64,000 nt of DNA from Candidatus Saccharimonadota bacterium (GTDB lineage Bacteria > Patescibacteriota > Saccharimonadia > Saccharimonadales > JAGQNJ01). The translations under genes were made by a program, and so were the position numbers. Positions 7,202-56,409 of this stretch are shown here, one piece after another. The first letter of the stretch is position 1; each line of letters begins with the position of its first letter. The notes under the pieces are model-generated. The model ran no database searches. It worked only from the letters and a program-made list of their open reading frames with translations, and was not told the DNA's origin. The DNA lies in the NCBI GenBank assembly GCA_036826295.1, contig DAISWO010000001.1:157652-221651 (forward strand). The letters run 5' to 3'.

Positions 7202-7912
7202 ATGAGAATAGATGAATATTTGGCCAAGAATGGTCTGGTCAGGTCTAGGTCTCATGCGAAAGATCTAGTGAATAGGGGAAAAGTTCGGGTTAATGGTGAT
7301 ATTGTCACAAAAGCTGGATATCAAATTAAACCTAGTGATAATTTAGTAGTCGATGAAGCGATTCAGCTAGTTTCGCGTGCTGGCGAAAAGTTAGCTTCTG
7401 TATACAAGAATTTTAACCTAGACTTTAATGACAAAGTTGTACTGGACGTCGGGTCCTCAACCGGAGGTTTTACTGACTTTGCATTACAAAATGGAGCAAA
7501 AAAAGTAATTGCCGTAGATACAGGCACTGATCAGCTGGCTGAAAAACTTCGGATAGATCCAAGAGTAGAATTGCACGAGAAAACTGATATCAGAGATTAT
7601 TCTGCGCACGGCAAATCGATAGATTACGCATTGATGGACGTGTCGTTTATATCAATTCGAAAAATTCTGCCTGCGGTTAAGGAATTATCGGATAAAGATA
7701 CTATCATTATCGCCATGTTAAAACCTCAGTTTGAAGCAACGATACCTCAGAAGAATAAGGGTGTAATCAAAAATTCTCGGGTAAGAAAAGAGATTTTATC
7801 TGAATTCGAAGCATGGGTTAAAAGGGGCTTTGTAATCTCTGCGTCTATGGACAGCCAGCTTAGTGGAACTAAAGGTAACGTTGAACGTTTTTATCGTCTG
7901 CAAAAAACATAA
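7202..7912 (+). CDS. tlyA: TlyA-family rRNA 2'-O-methyltransferase (S4 domain + FtsJ-like MTase)
   Basis: N-terminal S4 motif (RIDEYLAKNGLVRSRSHAKDLV) and SAM motif VLDVGSSTGGFTD. Confidence 0.8.
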   Translation: MRIDEYLAKNGLVRSRSHAKDLVNRGKVRVNGDIVTKAGYQIKPSDNLVVDEAIQLVSRAGEKLASVYKNFNLDFNDKVVLDVGSSTGGFTDFALQNGAKKVIAVDTGTDQLAEKLRIDPRVELHEKTDIRDYSAHGKSIDYALMDVSFISIRKILPAVKELSDKDTIIIAMLKPQFEATIPQKNKGVIKNSRVRKEILSEFEAWVKRGFVISASMDSQLSGTKGNVERFYRLQKT

Positions 7913-7938
7913 GCGTTCTGTTAAACTCATAAACATAA

Positions 7939-8595
7939 ATGTACTACAAAAGTCGAAATGAAGCCGGGCAGTTATTGGCAAAAAAATTGGTCGAAAAGTA
8001 CCGATATGAAGATTGCGCTGTAGTTGCGCTGTCTGAAGGTGGGGTGATAGTCGGTGCCGAAATCGCAAAAGCCCTTCACTGCGTGTTGACGATGCTTTTA
8101 ACTGAAGAAGTAAAGTTACCGGGAGAGACAAAACCAATCGCTGTGGTTAATCAAGATGGTGGGTTTACATATAATAATTTGTTCTCAACCGGAGAATTAG
8201 AAGGTTTTACAGCAGAATTCCATAACTATCTCGAGCAAGAAAAAATGCAAAAATTCCACGCTATTAATAGATTATTAGGCGAAGGGGGGCTGATTAGAAG
8301 TGATCTTTTGTATGGGCGAAACGTGATTCTTGTTTCTGACGGTTTAAATAGTGGGATTTCTTTGGATGCTGCTTCTGATTTTCTAAAGCCGATCAGAATT
8401 CAAAAAATGATAGTTGCGACCCCGCTAGCTACAGTTCAAGCGGTGGACAGGATGCATATTATGGCAGACGAGATTCAATGCCTCAGTGTGGTAGAGAACT
8501 ACATGAATACTAATCACTACTATGACGATAATAAGATGCCGGATAGAGACGTTATCTTAAAAACTATTGAGACGATTGTACTTAACTGGAAATAA
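7939..8595 (+). CDS. phosphoribosyltransferase-family protein (degenerate PRPP loop)
   Basis: VILVSDGLNSG resembles the PRTase VxLVDDGxxTG loop. Overall layout is COG1926-like. Confidence 0.5.
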   Translation: MYYKSRNEAGQLLAKKLVEKYRYEDCAVVALSEGGVIVGAEIAKALHCVLTMLLTEEVKLPGETKPIAVVNQDGGFTYNNLFSTGELEGFTAEFHNYLEQEKMQKFHAINRLLGEGGLIRSDLLYGRNVILVSDGLNSGISLDAASDFLKPIRIQKMIVATPLATVQAVDRMHIMADEIQCLSVVENYMNTNHYYDDNKMPDRDVILKTIETIVLNWK

Positions 8596-26044: not shown

Positions 26045-26959
26045 TTAATTAGGATCTTTGTGGAATTTATCATGAATCTTTTTAAGGTGTGGGTCTGTTA
26101 CATGAGTATATATCTGCGTAGTAGCCACATTACTATGGCCAAGCATTGCTTGAACGCTTCGTAAATCTGCGCCATTCATTAGTAAATCAGTTGCAAAAGA
26201 ATGTCTCAGTGTATGAGGTGACACGTGTTTAGTGATTCCAGCAGATTTAGCATATTTTTCAACCATTCTTTGTACGCTTCTCGCTGACAATCTCTTGTAA
26301 TCTCCACTCAAATTTGCAGAATTTTTACCGCTGTTGTTGATGAAAAGCGGTGTCAATGTGTCAGCTCTTTTACTTAGATATTTTTCTATCCATTCTACGG
26401 CGTTAGTACTAATAAAAATTGGTCGATCTTTCTGGCCCTTACCGCGCACCATGAATTCACGACGTTTCAGGTTAATGTCATCGCGATTTAGCTTTACTAG
26501 CTCAGATACCCTAAGTCCACTAGAAAACAACAGCTCTAAGATGGCTCGATCACGCAACCCTGCAATATTTTCAGTTTTGGGCGCAGAAAATAACCGCGTA
26601 AGTTCGTCTTGGTTTAGAAATGTTACTTGGGGGCGTTTTGTTCTGGCTAGCTCGATCTTATCGGCTGGTAGAGTCTTAATGTCTCTTTTCGCGCAAAATT
26701 TTAAAAACGATCGTAACGCTATAAGGTGATAGTTTTGAGTAGTTTTTTGAAGTTCATCGGACGTATTTGTACCCAGTCGGTTTAACCATAGTCGCCATTT
26801 TTGTACGAATTCGGGGGTTATGTCGCTAACTTTGATATCTCCGCCAAAATCTTCTAATCGCGTAAGGTAATGGTCGTAATTCTCTATAGTTTTTTGTGAA
26901 CGGTTTTGTTCAATCTCTAGGTATTCTAAAAAGTCGGTTTTAGCTTTAGCAAATTGCAT
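26045..26959 (-). CDS. tyrosine recombinase XerC/XerD family
   Basis: SAM-like N domain plus catalytic R...HTLRHSFATDLL...LGHSNVATTQIYTHV. Confidence 0.85.
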   Translation of the reverse strand: MQFAKAKTDFLEYLEIEQNRSQKTIENYDHYLTRLEDFGGDIKVSDITPEFVQKWRLWLNRLGTNTSDELQKTTQNYHLIALRSFLKFCAKRDIKTLPADKIELARTKRPQVTFLNQDELTRLFSAPKTENIAGLRDRAILELLFSSGLRVSELVKLNRDDINLKRREFMVRGKGQKDRPIFISTNAVEWIEKYLSKRADTLTPLFINNSGKNSANLSGDYKRLSARSVQRMVEKYAKSAGITKHVSPHTLRHSFATDLLMNGADLRSVQAMLGHSNVATTQIYTHVTDPHLKKIHDKFHKDPN

Positions 26960-27051
26960 ATATTTATCATACGCTAGTTGCTGTTCAAATCGTGCTCTAA
27001 TCTGTTACAATTAGCTCTAACAGTTAAATAATATATAATAAGGAGTAGATT

Positions 27052-27561
27052 TTGGAACGAACATTAATTATTTTAAAACCTGATGCCGTAAAACGAGGAA
27101 TAGTTGGAGAAATCTTAAGCCGATTCGAAAAAGCCGGTCTAAAGATAGTCGGTACTAAAATGCTTGCACCAGATGAACAACACTTCCATCATCATTACGA
27201 AACTATCGGAAAGATGGTAACTCGTAGAGGCCAAGAAGCATTTGATGTAACGCTTCAGATGATGCAGGAAGGTCCAGTGATAGCGTTTGTTCTTGAAGGC
27301 ATTAAAGCCGTCCCACTTGTCAGAAAGATGGTGGGGGACACAGAACCAGAGAAGGCTTTACCGGGCACAATAAGGGGTGATTATGCGCATATGGGGTTCG
27401 AGTATAGCAACAAAGAGAAGATTGGTGTCCCTAACCTTATTCACGCCTCTGGCGATTCAGAAGAAGCTAAAGATGAGATTGCTCATTGGTTTGCCGAGTC
27501 AGAATTATTTGAGTATGAAACAGTCCACGAAGTCTACACTCAGGCAAAAGCTAGAAAATAA
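27052..27561 (+). CDS. ndk: nucleoside-diphosphate kinase (TTG start)
   Basis: ERTLIILKPDAVKRG...GTIRGDY...NLIHASD-like motif (NLIHASGD). SD AAGGAG upstream. Confidence 0.9.
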   Translation: MERTLIILKPDAVKRGIVGEILSRFEKAGLKIVGTKMLAPDEQHFHHHYETIGKMVTRRGQEAFDVTLQMMQEGPVIAFVLEGIKAVPLVRKMVGDTEPEKALPGTIRGDYAHMGFEYSNKEKIGVPNLIHASGDSEEAKDEIAHWFAESELFEYETVHEVYTQAKARK

Positions 27562-27598
27562 CACTTCATAAGCTAGTTGTGCGGAAAAGGTCGATTAT

Positions 27599-27910
27599 TT
27601 AATCTGTTCTAGATGAATAGTCTTGACCCCACTCTAAAAGTCGATCTCGCACAGGTTCTAGTTTGCCTCTGATTGATTCTGGGAAATATATACATTCACC
27701 TTGTTCGATCGCTAAGTCGCATATTAGCTGAGCTCTCCACCATAAAAATTTTCCATCATTTACTTCTGCTAACAGAGGCGTGAGAGCAGTCTCGCCGAGA
27801 CCCAAGATCTGCGGGTATTGTTCCGCCCTCTCAAAGCCTCCAGACCAACAACGCGTTTCTTCATCAAGCTGCGCCGATAATTCGTGAACTAAGTCGTCAG
27901 AACTTTCCAT
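27599..27910 (-). CDS. hypothetical acidic cytoplasmic protein (103 aa)
   Basis: ORF only. No recognisable motif. Confidence 0.45.
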   Translation of the reverse strand: MESSDDLVHELSAQLDEETRCWSGGFERAEQYPQILGLGETALTPLLAEVNDGKFLWWRAQLICDLAIEQGECIYFPESIRGKLEPVRDRLLEWGQDYSSRTD

Positions 27911-27974
27911 TTATTCCTCGCCATAAGAATATATTATTGCTTTTTTGGGTTAATAATTTTGTATAATTCAAATT

Positions 27975-28358
27975 TTAGTTAGAATCACACAAGCTTGGTT
28001 CGCCTGCAAGCATTAGTTCGTCAGGACAAAGACCCTGAGTTTGTTGCTCGTTGACGCCCGGAACATAGTTTTTGCCAGTTGTTAAGCCGAAAAACCACAC
28101 TGAATACCCAATAACGACAGAGGTGAAGACTGCGATGAGTACATATTTATGAAGTCTGTCTTTAGAATATAGCCAGACGTATATCCCGAGTACGAGTGCA
28201 ATTATTGCAGCGTAATTTGCTGGCGAACCGAGCAAACCGTATGGAATGTCTATAACCAAACGAATTGTCCCATATATGAAATACAACGTCGCTAGTATGG
28301 AACCTGCCAATGCTAGGTTGTGCATATTATTATTTTTTGCGATTTGTTTTTTAGGCAT
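27975..28358 (-). CDS. hypothetical membrane protein (127 aa, 3-4 TM, Cys pair at C-terminus)
   Basis: ORF with SD AAAAAGGAG upstream and hydrophobic helices. Confidence 0.5.
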   Translation of the reverse strand: MPKKQIAKNNNMHNLALAGSILATLYFIYGTIRLVIDIPYGLLGSPANYAAIIALVLGIYVWLYSKDRLHKYVLIAVFTSVVIGYSVWFFGLTTGKNYVPGVNEQQTQGLCPDELMLAGEPSLCDSN

Positions 28359-28425
28359 AATGCCGCTCCTTTTTAATTATAAGCATAACTATAAACCTTT
28401 TAATTATATGTATCTACTTTTTAAA

Positions 28426-28448
28426 TGGTACCCCGGACAGGATTCGAA
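28426..28448 (-). repeat. exact 23-nt copy of the 3' end (T-loop to CCA) of the adjacent tRNA-Arg
   Basis: tggtaccccggacaggattcgaa is identical to 28594-28616. Confidence 0.9.
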
Positions 28449-28593
28449 TTGATTGATCCGCTCGAGAGCTAGGGAGAATTCGCTAGAAATATTTAAAACT
28501 CAAACAGTCCCCGACTGTTTTCGCCTGTCGGTCCGAATCCTATAAATGAATAATCCTTCATAGCTAACCCTTAAAAGGGTTTGCGACGAAGGA

Positions 28594-28670
28594 TGGTACC
28601 CCGGACAGGATTCGAACCTGTGACGCCCGCCTTAGGACGGCGGCGCTCTAATCCACTGAGCTACCGGGGC
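28594..28670 (-). tRNA. tRNA-Arg (anticodon CCU), CCA encoded
   Basis: Manual cloverleaf: acceptor GCCCCGG/CCGGGGT, D arm GCTC/GAGC, anticodon stem CCGCC/GGCGG with loop gtCCTaa, T arm ACAGG-TTCGAAT-CCTGT, A73, CCA. Confidence 0.9.
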
Positions 28671-28673
28671 TTA

Positions 28674-28913
28674 CTATATTCTTTTGTGCAAGTTTGTACG
28701 TATGCTACCACTTTTCTTGACTTGTAGTTCTCGTAATCTTGCTTTTATTAAGGTACTGTAGGCTTCATAATATACTAAAACGATAGGTAAATGATGCTTT
28801 GTTGAAATTACTCTCCCTGAAACGTGTTCATTCGTCCTTCTCCTCAGATCATTAGTAGAGCCATGATAATATGAGTTGTCCTTTTTAGACTGAAGTATGT
28901 AGAAGTAGTACAT
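28674..28913 (-). CDS. GIY-YIG nuclease family protein (79 aa, UPF0213/YhbQ-like)
   Basis: MYYFYILQSKKDNSYYHGSTNDLRRRTNEH... gives the GIY-YIG-type YxY...YxG...R...E core. The stop lies 3 nt before the tRNA 5' end. Confidence 0.8.
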   Translation of the reverse strand: MYYFYILQSKKDNSYYHGSTNDLRRRTNEHVSGRVISTKHHLPIVLVYYEAYSTLIKARLRELQVKKSGSIRTNLHKRI

Positions 28914-28918
28914 TATTA

Positions 28919-28974
28919 TAATCCACTGACCTGTCCGTCCTGTCTGGCCAGACAGGCGGGGCTACCGGGGCTTA
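28919..28974 (-). repeat. copy of the 5' flank plus nt 1-23 of tRNA-Arg, interrupted after nt 11 by a 31-nt palindromic insert
   Basis: taagccccggtagc[cccgcctgtctggccagacaggacggacagg]tcagtggatta compared with the intact taagccccggtagctcagtggatta. Confidence 0.85.
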
Positions 28975-29055
28975 TACTCAATATAATACCCTATAACTTC
29001 AGTTGGTAATAAGCGATAGTTTGATATAATAAAAGTGTTCAATAAAAAAACAAAC

Positions 29056-31278
29056 ATGAAAAAACAGATTAATCCAATTGTCGCTCTATTTTTTATAGTT
29101 ATTTCATCTATTTTATTGGGGTTCGGCATCTTTCTTGGCTATTCTGGTGTCACAACTGATCCCGGTGTTCAGATTAGTAATCCAAAGTCATATGTGGAGT
29201 CGTTTTTTCAAGGAATTTATAGATCTCCAGAGCTTGCTATCCCAGTAAAAAAAGCCGAGCAAGGTAAATCTAGCAAGCCTGAACAAACTCTTGTTACAGT
29301 TAATAATCAGACAGATTTGAACTCGTTTTTAGAAGCTAACGGCCTCGACGAGTCTGACATTCAGAAATCTAACGCTCTGCCTAATACATACATCGTCAAC
29401 ATTTCAAAGAATGAGCTCAATTCAGATAATGTAAGCCTTGCAGACCGCAAAAAGTACACATCGCTGTATGATTTTTCTACTCAGGACGTAATTTATCCTC
29501 AGTGGTATACCACTGCAATTCGGGCTGATGATATTTGGTCAGAAACTATCGGCAGCGTATCTACTACCGTTGCGGTAATAGATACAGGTTTTGCTCTAGA
29601 GCATGAAGACTTAATCGGACGATGGGCTGACGGGGGGTACGATTTTTACAATAATGACTCTGATCCATCAGCCGGAACCACAAGTGTTAATGGTTCAAGT
29701 GTGTCTCACGGTACGATGGTAGCAGGTTTGGTTGGCGCCACGGGGGATAACGGCGTTGGAGTGGCCAGTGTTAATTGGAGAACCAAGCTTTTGCCACTTC
29801 AGGCTCTTAGCGATAATGGTTCGGGCTGGACCGATGATGTCGCCGCCGCAGTCAACTATGCCGTGATTCAAGGAGCTGATGTTATTAATTTGAGTTTAGG
29901 TTCTAGCGGATCAGATCCAATACTAAAAGAAGCCATTGATAATGCTGTTGATGCTGGAGTGACTGTTGTCGCCGCTGCTGGCAACTGTGGCGCCAATAAC
30001 TTTGCATACCAAGGTTGCTCGCATCAAGGGGAGGTGTTGTATCCAGGCGCGCATTCTAACGTTATTGCCGTCGGTGCCACTGACAGTTCAAACAATAGAG
30101 CAGACTTTAGTAGTTATGGCGCAAGCGTTGATGTTGTAGCTCCGGGCTATGGGGCCATAAGGAGTACTATGTGGACAAATAGCAATAGAACCTCCGGTTA
30201 TAACAGCGTTTTGGCGGGAACGTCATTTGCGTCGCCTATTGTCGCTGGTGTTGCAGCTCTAAAAGTTGGCCAAGAACCAAGTATTACGCCTGACGAGGTT
30301 AGAAGCCAGCTTATTTCATCGGCAAATAAGGTGAATGCGATGGGTAATAAGTTTTTTTCAAATTATTATGGTTATGGACTGATCGATACTTATAAGTTGT
30401 TTCATCAGAATTCTTGTATTAATGATGTAGATTCCCCTAGCGGTGATGGCCAGCAAATTATAGCCGAAAAACACAATGCTAAGAATCCTACAACAATGTG
30501 GCATGTTCAACGGAATAACACCGATTCTCACTGCGAAGAAATAAGTCGGTGGAACGCCAACTATAATCAATGGGAGCATAAGGCTGTGACGAACGTGCCG
30601 ACACTTGATTCGGATGCAGAAAAAATGCTTTTCGCGGACACTAACGGCGACGGAGCAAGTGAACTAATACGGATCAAATATAACGACCCTTCAGGTAAAG
30701 TTGTTTTAAATTTCTGGGACGACACACTACAAGTATGGGCAAGACAGATAACTACAAATCTCAGCATTGCAAACATGTCATATGGTGATATTCAGGCAGC
30801 TGATACAAACGGCAACGGTAAAGACGAACTATTCTTCATAAAGTATAATCACACTAGTTCTGGCAAAGTTATGTTTTATCGATGGGATTCGTCTAGTTAT
30901 CAATCGTGGAACAAAAAAACAAAATCAAGGCTAGGTTCAATTAGTCGTTCGAAGGGGACTATCATACCAGCCGACTTTAATGGGGATAAAATCGATCGGT
31001 TTATATTTGTTCAGTATCAGGGGACAAGATCTGATAGAGTTGAAATTCGAGCTTTTTCTGGAAACTTACAGCAATGGACAAAAACAACTACTACGAATTT
31101 AAAAACGAGCTCAGCAAAAAATAATCTTGTTATAACTACCGATGTTAACGGTAATCGTAAGGATGAGCTAAATTTCGTAAAACGACAATCTACAGAAAAT
31201 AAAGTTATCATCTATCGTTGGAGATCAGACTTTAAGCAATGGACAGAAAAGAACGTAACTAATCTAACAGAGTTTTAG
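29056..31278 (+). CDS. membrane-anchored subtilisin-like serine protease (S8) with C-terminal FG-GAP/VCBS-like repeats
   Basis: Catalytic triad contexts VAVIDTGF (D), HGTMVAG (H), GTSFASPIVAG (S). Four ~48-aa repeats of the form D.NG[DN]..(D/E)....Y...V...W...W. The ORF also allows GTG 29035. Confidence 0.85.
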   Translation: MKKQINPIVALFFIVISSILLGFGIFLGYSGVTTDPGVQISNPKSYVESFFQGIYRSPELAIPVKKAEQGKSSKPEQTLVTVNNQTDLNSFLEANGLDESDIQKSNALPNTYIVNISKNELNSDNVSLADRKKYTSLYDFSTQDVIYPQWYTTAIRADDIWSETIGSVSTTVAVIDTGFALEHEDLIGRWADGGYDFYNNDSDPSAGTTSVNGSSVSHGTMVAGLVGATGDNGVGVASVNWRTKLLPLQALSDNGSGWTDDVAAAVNYAVIQGADVINLSLGSSGSDPILKEAIDNAVDAGVTVVAAAGNCGANNFAYQGCSHQGEVLYPGAHSNVIAVGATDSSNNRADFSSYGASVDVVAPGYGAIRSTMWTNSNRTSGYNSVLAGTSFASPIVAGVAALKVGQEPSITPDEVRSQLISSANKVNAMGNKFFSNYYGYGLIDTYKLFHQNSCINDVDSPSGDGQQIIAEKHNAKNPTTMWHVQRNNTDSHCEEISRWNANYNQWEHKAVTNVPTLDSDAEKMLFADTNGDGASELIRIKYNDPSGKVVLNFWDDTLQVWARQITTNLSIANMSYGDIQAADTNGNGKDELFFIKYNHTSSGKVMFYRWDSSSYQSWNKKTKSRLGSISRSKGTIIPADFNGDKIDRFIFVQYQGTRSDRVEIRAFSGNLQQWTKTTTTNLKTSSAKNNLVITTDVNGNRKDELNFVKRQSTENKVIIYRWRSDFKQWTEKNVTNLTEF

Positions 31279-43744: not shown

Positions 43745-43819
43745 TGGTGCGGGTAGAGAGAATCGAACTCTCCTCTCGACCTTGGGAAGGTCGCATATTA
43801 ACCACTATACGATACCCGC
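43745..43819 (-). tRNA. tRNA-Gly (anticodon CCC), CCA encoded
   Basis: Manual fold: acceptor GCGGGTA/TACCCGC, anticodon stem CGACC/GGTCG with loop ttCCCaa, T loop TTCGATT. Confidence 0.85.
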
Positions 43820-44016: not shown

Positions 44017-44094
44017 GGGCCCGTGGTGTAGCTGGCCTAACACGCCTCCCTGTCACGGAGGAGATCGCCGGTTCGAATCCGGTCGGGCCCGCCA
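44017..44094 (+). tRNA. tRNA-Asp (anticodon GUC), CCA encoded
   Basis: Acceptor GGGCCCG/CGGGCCC, anticodon stem CCTCC/GGAGG with loop ctGTCac, T arm GCCGG-TTCGAAT-CCGGT, G73. Confidence 0.85.
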
Positions 44095-44101
44095 TAGAAA
44101 A

Positions 44102-44132
44102 AGCCTCAGGTCTTGTATCTGGGGCTTTTTCT
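44102..44132 (+). terminator. intrinsic terminator after the tRNA-Thr/tRNA-Asp pair
   Basis: AGCCTCAG pairs with CTGGGGCT (8 bp, one G-U), followed by TTTT. Confidence 0.6.
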
Positions 44133-44371
44133 ATTGACGAGACTTGTCTCGTGTTTCGGACCGGATACCGCGTAGCGGCCGGTTCGGTCATCAAGCCCGC
44201 GCACAGAAGCTTGCTTCGAGCACGGGTGTAGATGTGCGCAGAAGGTCGGGCTCGGCAGACCGAACCTTAGTGCTGTACTTTGTTTGTTGGTTTTTACAAT
44301 TTCGTATTCACTAGATTTTATGAGGAAACATATAGATGCGTGAACTCAGAGTGCCTCGATGGCACTCTTCG

Positions 44372-44396
44372 GGTTCGAATCCGGTCGAGCCCATCA
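44372..44396 (+). repeat. degenerate copy (22/25) of the 3' end of tRNA-Asp
   Basis: ggttcgaatccggtcgAgcccAtca compared with ggttcgaatccggtcgGgcccGcca at 44070-44094. Confidence 0.75.
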
Positions 44397-56025: not shown

Positions 56026-56359
56026 AGCCAGATTATTGACTGATCGCTCGCTTTAACGTGGGAGGAAAGTCCGGGCAACGTAGAGAAGGGTAGTTGTTAA
56101 CGGCAACCGGGGGCGACCCTAGGGAAAGTGCCACAGAAACAATACTTCCGCTTCGGCGGTAAAGGTGAAAAGAGTGGGGTAAAAGCCCACAGTTTGCGAT
56201 GGTGACATCGTAAATAGGTAAACCCTACCTGTTGCAAGGAGTATATTCACAAAACGGTTTCTCGCCGGAATATACGATGATCCGCTTGATTCTATCGGCA
56301 ACGATAGAACTAGATAGATGATTAGTCGCGACTAAACCCGGCTTACAGATAATCTGGCA
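56026..56359 (+). ncRNA. rnpB: RNase P RNA (bacterial type)
   Basis: Conserved GGAGGAAAGTCCGGGC (P4 5' strand), ...ACCCGGCTTA (P4 3' strand), and P1 pairing AGCCAGATTAT/ATAATCTGGC. Confidence 0.85.
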
Positions 56360-56409
56360 TTTTTATAATAAACTTGAAAAATTTTCTATCTACCATGACA
56401 CTATAGGTA

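Follow-up and report, generated by a model that had tools for sequence, protein, structure and literature searches.

A probable homing-type GIY-YIG nuclease cassette in a tRNA-Arg gene of Saccharibacteria and its relatives across the Candidate Phyla Radiation

In a 64-kb stretch of a Candidatus Saccharibacteria genome, hereafter the window, the gene for tRNA-Arg(CCU) is nested between a 5' and a 3' fragment of itself, and an open reading frame (ORF) for a predicted GIY-YIG nuclease of 79 amino acids (aa) separates the 5' fragment from the intact gene. A first-pass annotation of the sequence had pointed out this arrangement, and our analysis confirms it at its coordinates. What we have found is probably a selfish, horizontally mobile, homing-type nuclease cassette, which inserted in the 5' part of the tRNA gene and restored its target by duplication. 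The window tRNA has been kept intact through duplication of its first 22 nucleotides (nt), and the family to which the cassette belongs, built on a minimal GIY-YIG domain of the UPF0213/Slx1 type, is spread across the Candidate Phyla Radiation (CPR).

Occupied and empty alleles of the tRNA-Arg locus

We reached the orthologous loci of other Saccharibacteria through orthologues of the divergent S8 peptidase neighbour (loci outside the window carry L numbers). Their syntenic order is a XerC-like gene, NDK, a few variable small genes and tRNA-Arg(CCU), followed on the other strand by the S8 peptidase, bPH_2 and SurA. Such a comparison had been proposed as a check on the arrangement, and it yielded both empty and occupied alleles. 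L087 and L088 are empty, with promoter and tRNA only; L094 holds promoter, tRNA and one hairpin, with no nuclease gene; L086 has the promoter, the tRNA, a 145-nt spacer (93% identical to that of the window), an exact 3' fragment and a 127-aa gene, and is without nuclease gene, 5' fragment and hairpin. Occupied alleles are found in L089 and L090 (5' fragment with hairpin, nuclease gene, tRNA, spacer, 3' fragment) and in L001, which has the same series from the 5' fragment with hairpin to the tRNA and whose contig then stops within the spacer. At L002, a tRNA-Arg(UCU) locus, the nuclease (a 63% identical protein), the 5' fragment and the hairpin occur without spacer or 3' fragment, and the nt 12-24 piece matches the locus's own tRNA-Arg(UCU) variant. 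A scan of metagenome contigs for exact matches to 47 nt of the tRNA added two loci, both empty and more distantly syntenic.

Aligned with L086, the window shows a promoter that is 100% identical, one clean gap of 301 nt and a tRNA that is 100% identical. The junction alignment places the point at which occupied alleles depart from empty ones precisely after GGTAGC, that is, after tRNA nt 11, and the displaced piece at 28961-28974 holds the place that tRNA nt 1-11 has in the empty alleles. The repeats at the 5' side of the locus are also spaced by 301 nt, equal to the length of the insertion. With nt 1-22 present a second time in the insertion, the tRNA is made whole again directly downstream of the ORF. 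This intact tRNA is 100% identical across the syntenic loci, L091 excepted, and that of the window is 100% identical to the tRNA of the GIY-empty alleles L084-L088 and L094. The 5' copy had initially been read as tRNA nt 1-23 together with a shared upstream TAA. The copy is there, ending at nt 22 with nt 23 mismatched; the TAA is an exact repeat in the window, but L001 and L089 have TAT before the fragment and TCA before the intact tRNA, so that the shared flank is probably coincidental, and we rejected it as part of the duplication.

The tRNA fragments cannot have arisen by chance: both strands together make 128 kb, in which any one 11-mer should turn up about 0.03 times, whereas a 23-mer and two collinear 11-mers are all found less than 550 nt from their source tRNA. 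An assembly artefact is likewise excluded, because independent assemblies from other samples (L001, L089, L090) have the same layout.

The allele series also separates the two sides of the locus. The first-pass annotation had taken both fragments as the brackets of a single cassette of ~470 bp; however, L086 carries the 3' module alone and L002 the 5' module alone, so that two independent insertions must be distinguished, one of 301 nt on the 5' side and one of 168 nt on the 3' side. The 145-nt spacer with its 3' fragment is a separate, ORF-less 168-nt insertion at the T loop of the same gene, present in L086, L089 and L090 and absent in L087, L088 and L094. Of the two fragments, only the 3' one is also seen apart from any GIY-YIG gene, the state that simple decay of an old duplication would leave.

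The displaced 5' copy is split by a 31-nt hairpin whose 18-nt core is the longest GC-rich perfect palindrome of the window. Its predicted fold has -21.8 kcal/mol, with a z of -1.5 against shuffles that is not significant. The hairpin is 30/31 identical in L002, though the ORFs are synonymously saturated; it is present in L089, has 29 extra nt in L001 and is absent from every empty allele. Upstream of it all stands the sequence TTACCA-18-TATATT, which, in the empty alleles L086, L087 and L094, comes directly before the intact tRNA and looks like its native promoter. The intact tRNA of the window, which starts 3 nt past the ORF stop, has no promoter of its own, and a consensus scan of the minus strand from the site at 28980-29009 to the tRNA found no second promoter-like site.

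A comparison of L001 with L089 shows that the nuclease gene has been transferred horizontally: it is identical at 232/240 nt, with 5 of its 80 third positions changed, whereas the adjoining S8 gene has 343 of 741 third positions changed (P = 3e-15 vs the ORF). Expressed as synonymous divergence (dS), the pair stands at 0.10 for the ORF, an estimate from 79 codons only, against about 1.8 for S8 and 1.1 for bPH_2. Of L087 and L089, the two closest hosts in the set (host dS 0.2-0.5), the former is empty and the latter occupied.

Table 1. Features of the tRNA-Arg(CCU) locus; all of them read on the minus strand of the window
Feature	Position	Strand	Basis or remark
Promoter-like site TTACCA-18-TATATT	28980..29009	-	Consensus scan; ends 6 nt ahead of TAA
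Displaced original tRNA 5' end: TAA + tRNA nt 1-11 (GCCCCGGTAGC)	28961..28974	-	Exact 14-nt direct repeat of 28660-28673
GC-rich palindromic hairpin insert, 31 nt, CCCGCCTGTCTGGCCAGACAGGACGGACAGG	28930..28960	-	Splits displaced copy between tRNA nt 11 and 12
Copy of tRNA nt 12-22 (TCAGTGGATTA)	28919..28929	-	Repeat search; 11-nt match
Linker TAATA, 5 nt	28914..28918	-	With the nt 12-22 copy, 5' leader of the ORF
79-aa predicted GIY-YIG nuclease gene, UPF0213/Slx1-like	28674..28913	-	Pfam PF01541, E = 1.5e-13
Intact tRNA-Arg(CCU), CCA encoded	28594..28670	-	ARAGORN; Rfam tRNA 61.7 bits
Non-coding spacer, 145 nt	28449..28593	-	Fold z = -2.6; inverted repeat inside
Exact copy of tRNA nt 55-77 including CCA, 23 nt	28426..28448	-	Starts at first base of T loop
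301-nt insertion vs L086, nt 11/12 register: hairpin, nt 12-22, TAATA, ORF, TAA, nt 1-11	28660..28960	-	

The spacer begins with a 40-nt hairpin immediately after CCA (28593-28554). Further on it holds a stretch complementary to the T arm (28530-28541) and, at about 28520-28495, the hairpin AAACAGTCGGGGACTGTTT followed by GAGTTTT, a T-run; as a scan under strict rules called no terminator, we describe this hairpin as terminator-like only. The 23-nt 3' copy reaches 24 nt when one flanking base is counted. We considered whether the 3' fragment extends further upstream, interrupted by a hairpin insertion, and rejected this, the preceding 14 nt agreeing with the tRNA at 3-4 positions by eye. A group I or II intron in the tRNA was rejected as well: the tRNA is uninterrupted, and Rfam at E <= 1 found no intron family in 27500-29800 and assigned the 145-nt spacer to no family; at the gathering threshold, over the whole window, Rfam reported tRNAs and RNase P RNA only. 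A tblastn search of the nuclease protein against the window returned its own gene alone, with no decayed copy in the spacers.

Several side observations concern the surroundings. The 1-2 kb between tRNA-Arg and the XerC-like gene are mosaic (window 26045-28358 and the same stretch of L086, L087, L089 and L094): NDK comes in two allele types, only 54% identical, and genes for a 127-aa membrane protein, a 103-aa protein and a CYTH-domain protein are present or absent between close relatives. For the 127-aa gene, which lies beside the 3' module, dS between the window and L086 stands at 0.38, in contrast to the saturated host genes. Past the empty tRNA-Arg(CCU) of L084, at 1205-1370, we noticed an apparent tRNA-like sequence on the reverse strand and then a piece resembling a tRNA 3' end (GGTCAAATCCCTCCGGGTGTCACA), with no nuclease gene. 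L092 and L093, which have the closest S8 orthologue (89% identity), are contigs that stop at the tRNA-Arg locus, 52 nt ahead of the S8 gene; as both end there, repeats at this locus may break short-read assemblies.

The nuclease and its family

As judged from its sequence, the ORF is an intact gene under selection that encodes a predicted nuclease of the UPF0213/Slx1 type. The Pfam match scores 51.3 bits against a cut-off of 22.6 and covers profile positions 1-71 of 78. Y3, Y5, Y16, G18, R26, H30 and E50 are invariant across 33 aligned homologues, and we assume, by analogy with I-TevI and UvrC, that they have the corresponding catalytic roles. The AlphaFold2 model (pLDDT 95.6) has three strands plus helices in the GIY-YIG alpha/beta fold. 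A profile search of the PDB gave 1zg2 (1.6e-13), 1ywl (1.1e-10) and then SLX1; by sequence profile and fold, the nearest solved proteins are UPF0213 members BH0048 and EF2693, followed by the Slx1 nuclease domain. With Foldseek, BH0048 came top, Slx1 at TMq 0.65-0.70 and I-TevI at 0.46-0.53; the GIY-YIG domain of UvrC is also matched by the model, well behind UPF0213 and Slx1. The ratio of nonsynonymous to synonymous divergence (dN/dS) is 0.11-0.16 against the closest relatives, which is purifying selection. The PDB titles of the solved UPF0213 structures read 'hypothetical UPF0213 protein', with no function. We also considered a phage origin or membership of the SegB group and rejected both: no PHROG family matches the protein, its phage matches are two and weak (39% identity), and viral contigs hold relatives at 31-40% identity only.

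A scan with the nuclease alignment, taking one genome per species, found more than 540 relatives, of which the best 80 loci were retained. The search for further GIY-YIG copies abutting tRNA genes had been suggested from the outset, and it revealed the same architecture at many other tRNA genes. In 39 of the 80 loci a tRNA lies within 400 nt of the ORF; tRNA density is 0.76/kb near the ORFs vs 0.04/kb beyond 1 kb, a 19-fold excess, and 42 of 50 nearby tRNAs share the strand of the ORF (P = 1e-6). At least 13 tRNA isotypes are involved. A neighbour-joining tree of 88 short proteins clusters the architectures by clade, at a resolution too weak to count independent insertions.

The position of the ORF goes with the side of the tRNA that is copied. 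Where the ORF is just upstream of the tRNA, a copy of the 5' part of that tRNA lies ahead of the ORF, as in L038 (nt 1-36, 36/36), L041 (nt 2-36), L063, L016, L028, L071, L074, L067, L049, L006 and L011; where the ORF is downstream, some loci (L010, L054, L048) have a 3' copy after it. Read from exact-match scans and by eye, the junctions recur at tRNA nt 11/12, 14-15, 35-37 and 54-58 and just after CCA. All upstream-type loci inspected have a GC-rich hairpin within or directly beside the displaced 5' copy, and of the 37 GC-rich palindromes in the family loci 23 lie at most 150 nt from an ORF. The tRNA-Glu pieces that flank the intact gene in L063 and L050 differ from it in their acceptor stem, which indicates that a foreign tRNA copy replaced the resident one.

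Other homologues follow a different layout. Of 87 homologous ORFs, 45, mostly away from tRNAs, lie tightly between exact inverted repeats of 10-23 nt, whereas chance would give about 2, and the left arms of these repeats share the consensus (A)CCCC[CT][AC]CAC. Among the ORFs so bracketed are copies within rRNA genes, the 23S gene in L073, L075, L077, L078, L079 and L083 and the 16S gene in L069, with exact inverted repeats of 19-22 nt. The 23S copies, placed by eye, are at the helix 25 region, a classic site of intervening sequences. In L026, another of the bracketed cases, the ORF overlaps the start of an RNase P RNA match, and RNase-P-like sequence is also found upstream of the ORF. The RNase P RNA of the window itself, class A bacterial (253 bits, 56028-56361, +), is uninterrupted.

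There are also modules without any ORF. At the tRNA-Asp of the window (44017-44396, +) a terminator hairpin is followed by ~130 nt of GC-rich sequence, AT-rich sequence with a hairpin at its end, and tRNA nt ~54-77 in a degenerate copy, of which 16 nt are exact (44372-44387); compared with Rfam, this spacer gave no family and nothing meaningful. L087 (8154-8600) and L089 (8266-8520) have the same tRNA-Asp modules, of about 120 and 160 nt, in other order or number, each ending in a copy of the tRNA 3' part. The sequences suggest that ORF-less modules may have been stacked serially at the 3' end of tRNA-Asp. In L089, at 7882-8075 (-), an insert of ~125 nt interrupts the anticodon loop of the resident tRNA-Gly(CCC) and holds a complete, different tRNA-Gly(CCC) and short imperfect inverted repeats, with no ORF; the resident gene is intact in L087 and in the window (43745-43819). 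Whole replacement-tRNA cassettes thus exist elsewhere, in L063, in L050 and at the tRNA-Gly of L089. For the window, the earlier proposal of a self-restoring GIY-YIG invasion of a resident tRNA stands as far as an invasion that left a working tRNA is concerned; no whole replacement tRNA can be demonstrated there.

As a side observation, a 26-nt perfect palindrome, GCCA-CGTCGNTCGCGANCGACG-TGGC, lies just past the tRNA 3' end in L003, L008, L010, L012, L014, L016, L017, L022, L025 and L028, and a variant, CGTCAGCTTAAGCTGACG, occupies the same place in L004, L023, L048 and L066. The 26-nt palindrome begins with the tRNA's own GCCA, and after it the last 7-8 nt of the tRNA are repeated; half-palindrome plus tRNA end form tandem arrays in L004 (five units), L010 and L022 (three each). 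It is near-identical in distant CPR classes, at Trp, Asp, Ser and Gln tRNAs, and a nuclease gene of one clade is always 80-380 nt downstream of it.

Homing and the alternatives

On the reading that we favour, the original 5' end of the tRNA would have been left at the promoter, broken by the conserved GC-rich palindrome, and the old tRNA promoter would transcribe leader, ORF and tRNA as one RNA, from which RNase P would free the tRNA from leader and ORF by cleavage at its 5' end. Spread would most likely be homing-like: the nuclease would break the DNA of a tRNA gene, the break would be repaired by copying the occupied allele, and the displaced 5' piece and the intact tRNA could act as built-in homology arms that reproduce the arrangement in the recipient. 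The palindrome might serve here in one of several ways. It could ruin the leftover target in the displaced piece, the sole remaining joint of promoter and tRNA 5' end; it could block deletion of the ORF through the flanking repeats; or it may itself be the structure that the nuclease recognises.

Several points weigh against such a homing cassette. Its enzyme is a catalytic domain only: the Pfam match and the model span essentially all 79 aa, and neither reveals an appended DNA-binding domain of the kind found in I-TevI and Seg proteins. In this it differs from the characterised site-specific GIY-YIG homing enzymes, and its closest structural relatives, the Slx1 nucleases, are structure-specific rather than sequence-specific. 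These relatives, together with the GC-rich palindromes at the junctions, are what suggests that the protein may cut branched or hairpin DNA by structure. The tRNA is identical in occupied and empty alleles, so that a target wholly within the tRNA would be cut in the carrier too; immunity of the carrier would require recognition of the promoter-tRNA junction, which the hairpin disrupts, or of DNA structure. Homology arms of this size (11 + 11 nt on the left) are short, and the limits of the transferred tract are uninformative because the promoter and tRNA on its flanks are conserved. The shortness of the gene weakens its dS estimates. Finally, about half of the homologues lie inside tight inverted repeats without tRNA duplications, which suits a transposon-like or RNA-stem logic equally well.

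The main rival, which we regard as unlikely, starts from those inverted repeats. The element would be transposon-like, with a structure-specific mechanism: palindrome or inverted repeats as its ends, the Slx1-like nuclease as a 'transposase' acting on extruded hairpins or on tRNA-gene DNA folded as a cloverleaf, the tRNA repeats as target-site duplications, and solo palindromes and ORF-less modules as non-autonomous derivatives moved in trans. The Slx1-like fold (structure-specific nucleases being the nearest matches), the missing DNA-binding domain and the junctions that recur at few tRNA positions keep it alive, and the bracketed ORFs with their common left arm would fit it well. In L074 and L049 the order is tRNA nt 1-11, left arm, ORF, right arm, tRNA nt 1-11, the very layout of terminal inverted repeats within a target-site duplication; the nt 1-11 repeat of the window can be read in the same way, bracketing inverted repeats occur in L074, L049 and 43 other homologues, and the L001 hairpin resembles two arms around a 29-nt remnant. 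In the window, however, the arms abut upstream of the ORF, which is outside the palindrome and not between the arms, and this hairpin is single-copy there. Inverted-repeat copies away from tRNA genes have no consistent target-site duplication, and the inverted repeats of the copies in rRNA genes could instead be RNA stems that allow excision from the transcript. We know of no transposase that consists of a GIY-YIG domain only.

Recombination at tRNA att sites, with the locus as the scars of integration and excision by a recombinase and the GIY-YIG gene as passive cargo, seems improbable for the locus as a whole. Its appeal lies on the 3' side, where tRNA, 145-nt spacer and exact 23-nt 3' copy look like a classic attL/attR pair, tRNA-Asp has stacked ORF-less 3' modules of a similar kind, a mosaic hot spot (NDK, 127-aa, 103-aa and CYTH genes) extends downstream of tRNA-Arg and a tyrosine-recombinase gene (PF00589) is 1.5 kb off, at 26045-26959. 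But that recombinase is also found in the empty alleles L086 and L087, with 94-100% protein conservation (L091 orthologue left out), and looks like a housekeeping XerC/D; the 301-nt cassette is too small for an integrase, and neither the 301- nor the 168-nt module has such an ORF. Integrases do not leave a tRNA 5'-end duplication with a hairpin inside, and the ORF on its own is seen again beside partial tRNA copies at more than 12 other tRNA genes, and in rRNA genes, where no recombinase was seen. Repeated integration and excision at the tRNA, as the first-pass annotation had alternatively envisaged, could account for the 3' module only. The least probable explanation, and a very improbable one, is an old tandem duplication of the tRNA followed by decay, next to which an ordinary resident gene, for instance of a repair nuclease, lies by chance or uses the tRNA promoter. 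The fragments are indeed identical to the adjacent tRNA, with no foreign origin visible within the window, the ORF is under purifying selection, and UPF0213 proteins are widespread in cells. Yet the clean presence/absence polymorphism of the allele series largely refutes it, the L001-L089 divergence of the ORF is more than 10-fold below that of the flanking genes, the hairpin sequence is kept across different tRNA loci, the same layout is found at many tRNA species and in rRNA genes, and the pieces in L063 and L050 differ from the intact tRNA.

A bolder reading, which we offer tentatively and hold to be rather doubtful as a whole, is a CPR-wide class of mobile elements of which we found no description. 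In it, a catalytic-only GIY-YIG enzyme of the Slx1/UPF0213 type with a conserved GC-rich palindrome would attack the structure-prone DNA of tRNA, rRNA and RNase P RNA genes, partial tRNA copies would be portable homology arms that always leave a working tRNA, and the solo palindromes, the ORF-less tRNA-3' modules (tRNA-Arg, tRNA-Asp) and the replacement-tRNA cassettes (L089 tRNA-Gly, L063, L050) would be non-autonomous relatives mobilised in trans. If this were true, self-restoring cassettes would be fighting one another over the tRNA genes of these tiny genomes.

Known systems and implications

By analogy, the cassette may be seen as a bacterial tRNA counterpart of the phage SegB system and of the fungal mitochondrial mORFs. 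SegB of phages T4 and T6 is a free-standing GIY-YIG homing endonuclease in tRNA gene clusters (PMC2330249; PMC13096335). Its 27-bp site includes the T-psi-C motif of the tRNA, and it homes its own gene together with the flanking tRNA region into empty alleles (PMC2330249); it cuts within tRNA genes, is enriched beside phage tRNAs and drives segmental duplications via breaks and recombination (PMC13096335). Shared with our family are a GIY-YIG gene adjoining tRNA genes and a tRNA association that is statistically enriched and involves several isotypes. However, SegB is phage-borne and site-specific, whereas the window protein is a 79-aa catalytic domain on a CPR chromosome, closest to UPF0213/Slx1, and its ORF lies within one tRNA gene that has been partly duplicated, the junction being marked by a conserved palindrome. 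The mORFs of Allomyces macrogynus atp6 and of Glomus atp6, atp9, cox2 and nad3 bring in a LAGLIDADG or GIY-YIG ORF along with a copied gene end (PMC3630166); this copy takes the place of the native end, which is left as a fragment, empty alleles occur in close relatives and a horizontal origin is indicated (PMC3630166). Endonuclease ORF, duplicated gene end, fragment of the native end, empty alleles and horizontal origin all have their parallel here. The hosts of mORFs are mitochondrial protein genes with the C-terminus duplicated, whereas ours is a bacterial tRNA with its 5' end duplicated (the 3' end in other members), a GC-rich palindrome stands at the junction and the GIY-YIG clade is another.

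Within the CPR, GIY-YIG ORFs have been described in insertions of rRNA genes that are neither group I nor group II introns (PMC11270868); tRNA genes are not mentioned in that paper (PMC11270868). The radiation is the same, and homologues of the window protein (49% identity) lie inside 23S and 16S rRNA genes. The difference is that the window copy is in a tRNA gene: an rRNA gene tolerates an excisable insertion, whereas at tRNA genes a partial duplication rebuilds an uninterrupted tRNA instead. Tyrosine-recombinase islands and prophages at tRNA genes resemble our modules in that the incoming DNA restores the displaced part of the tRNA and the distal border carries a direct repeat of the tRNA 3' end, a feature also of the window's 3' module; they differ in that the window modules are without integrase, measure 301 and 168 nt rather than kilobases and, for the nuclease cassette, duplicate the 5' end. 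As for Slx1 and the UPF0213 proteins BH0048 and EF2693, they have the same minimal GIY-YIG core and give the best profile and fold matches, but Slx1 acts with Slx4 and has a RING/zinc-finger domain.

Searches of the literature on UPF0213/YhbQ/COG2827 returned no report tying these proteins to tRNA genes or mobility, and those on GIY-YIG with tRNA, Patescibacteria or palindromes no description of this arrangement. If self-propagating, a cassette of ~300 nt with a 79-aa enzyme would be, to our knowledge, the smallest such nuclease cassette. It would show how a selfish gene can live inside an essential and very short gene by duplicating part of its host gene, and it would join phage SegB and its tRNA genes, the fungal mORFs and the unexplained GIY-YIG insertions in CPR rRNA genes, a link that we did not find in the literature searched. 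It also gives bacterial UPF0213 proteins a testable role. On the practical side, the cassettes create tRNA pseudo-fragments and repeats that can mislead tRNA annotation in the CPR, and they mark recombination hot spots in otherwise streamlined genomes; were the enzyme structure-specific for hairpin or cloverleaf DNA, it could become a reagent.

In L041, L063, L050 and L070, pseudo-tRNA pieces have inserts of ~30 nt in the anticodon, T or D loop, made of two mini-hairpins with 6-bp stems and 3-nt loops, which in our view recall the 'double-hairpin elements' of fungal mitochondria. In L016 (2007-2761) and L028 (1898-2761) one tRNA-Trp lies between nuclease genes of two clades, the upstream one with a displaced 5' copy and the downstream one beyond the CCA palindrome. 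In L071 (2430-3118) the intact tRNA-Pro is preceded by two tandem copies of a unit that consists of a 5' tRNA-Pro fragment, a hairpin and a nuclease ORF, and this arrangement resembles the SegB-type segmental amplification reported in phage T6.

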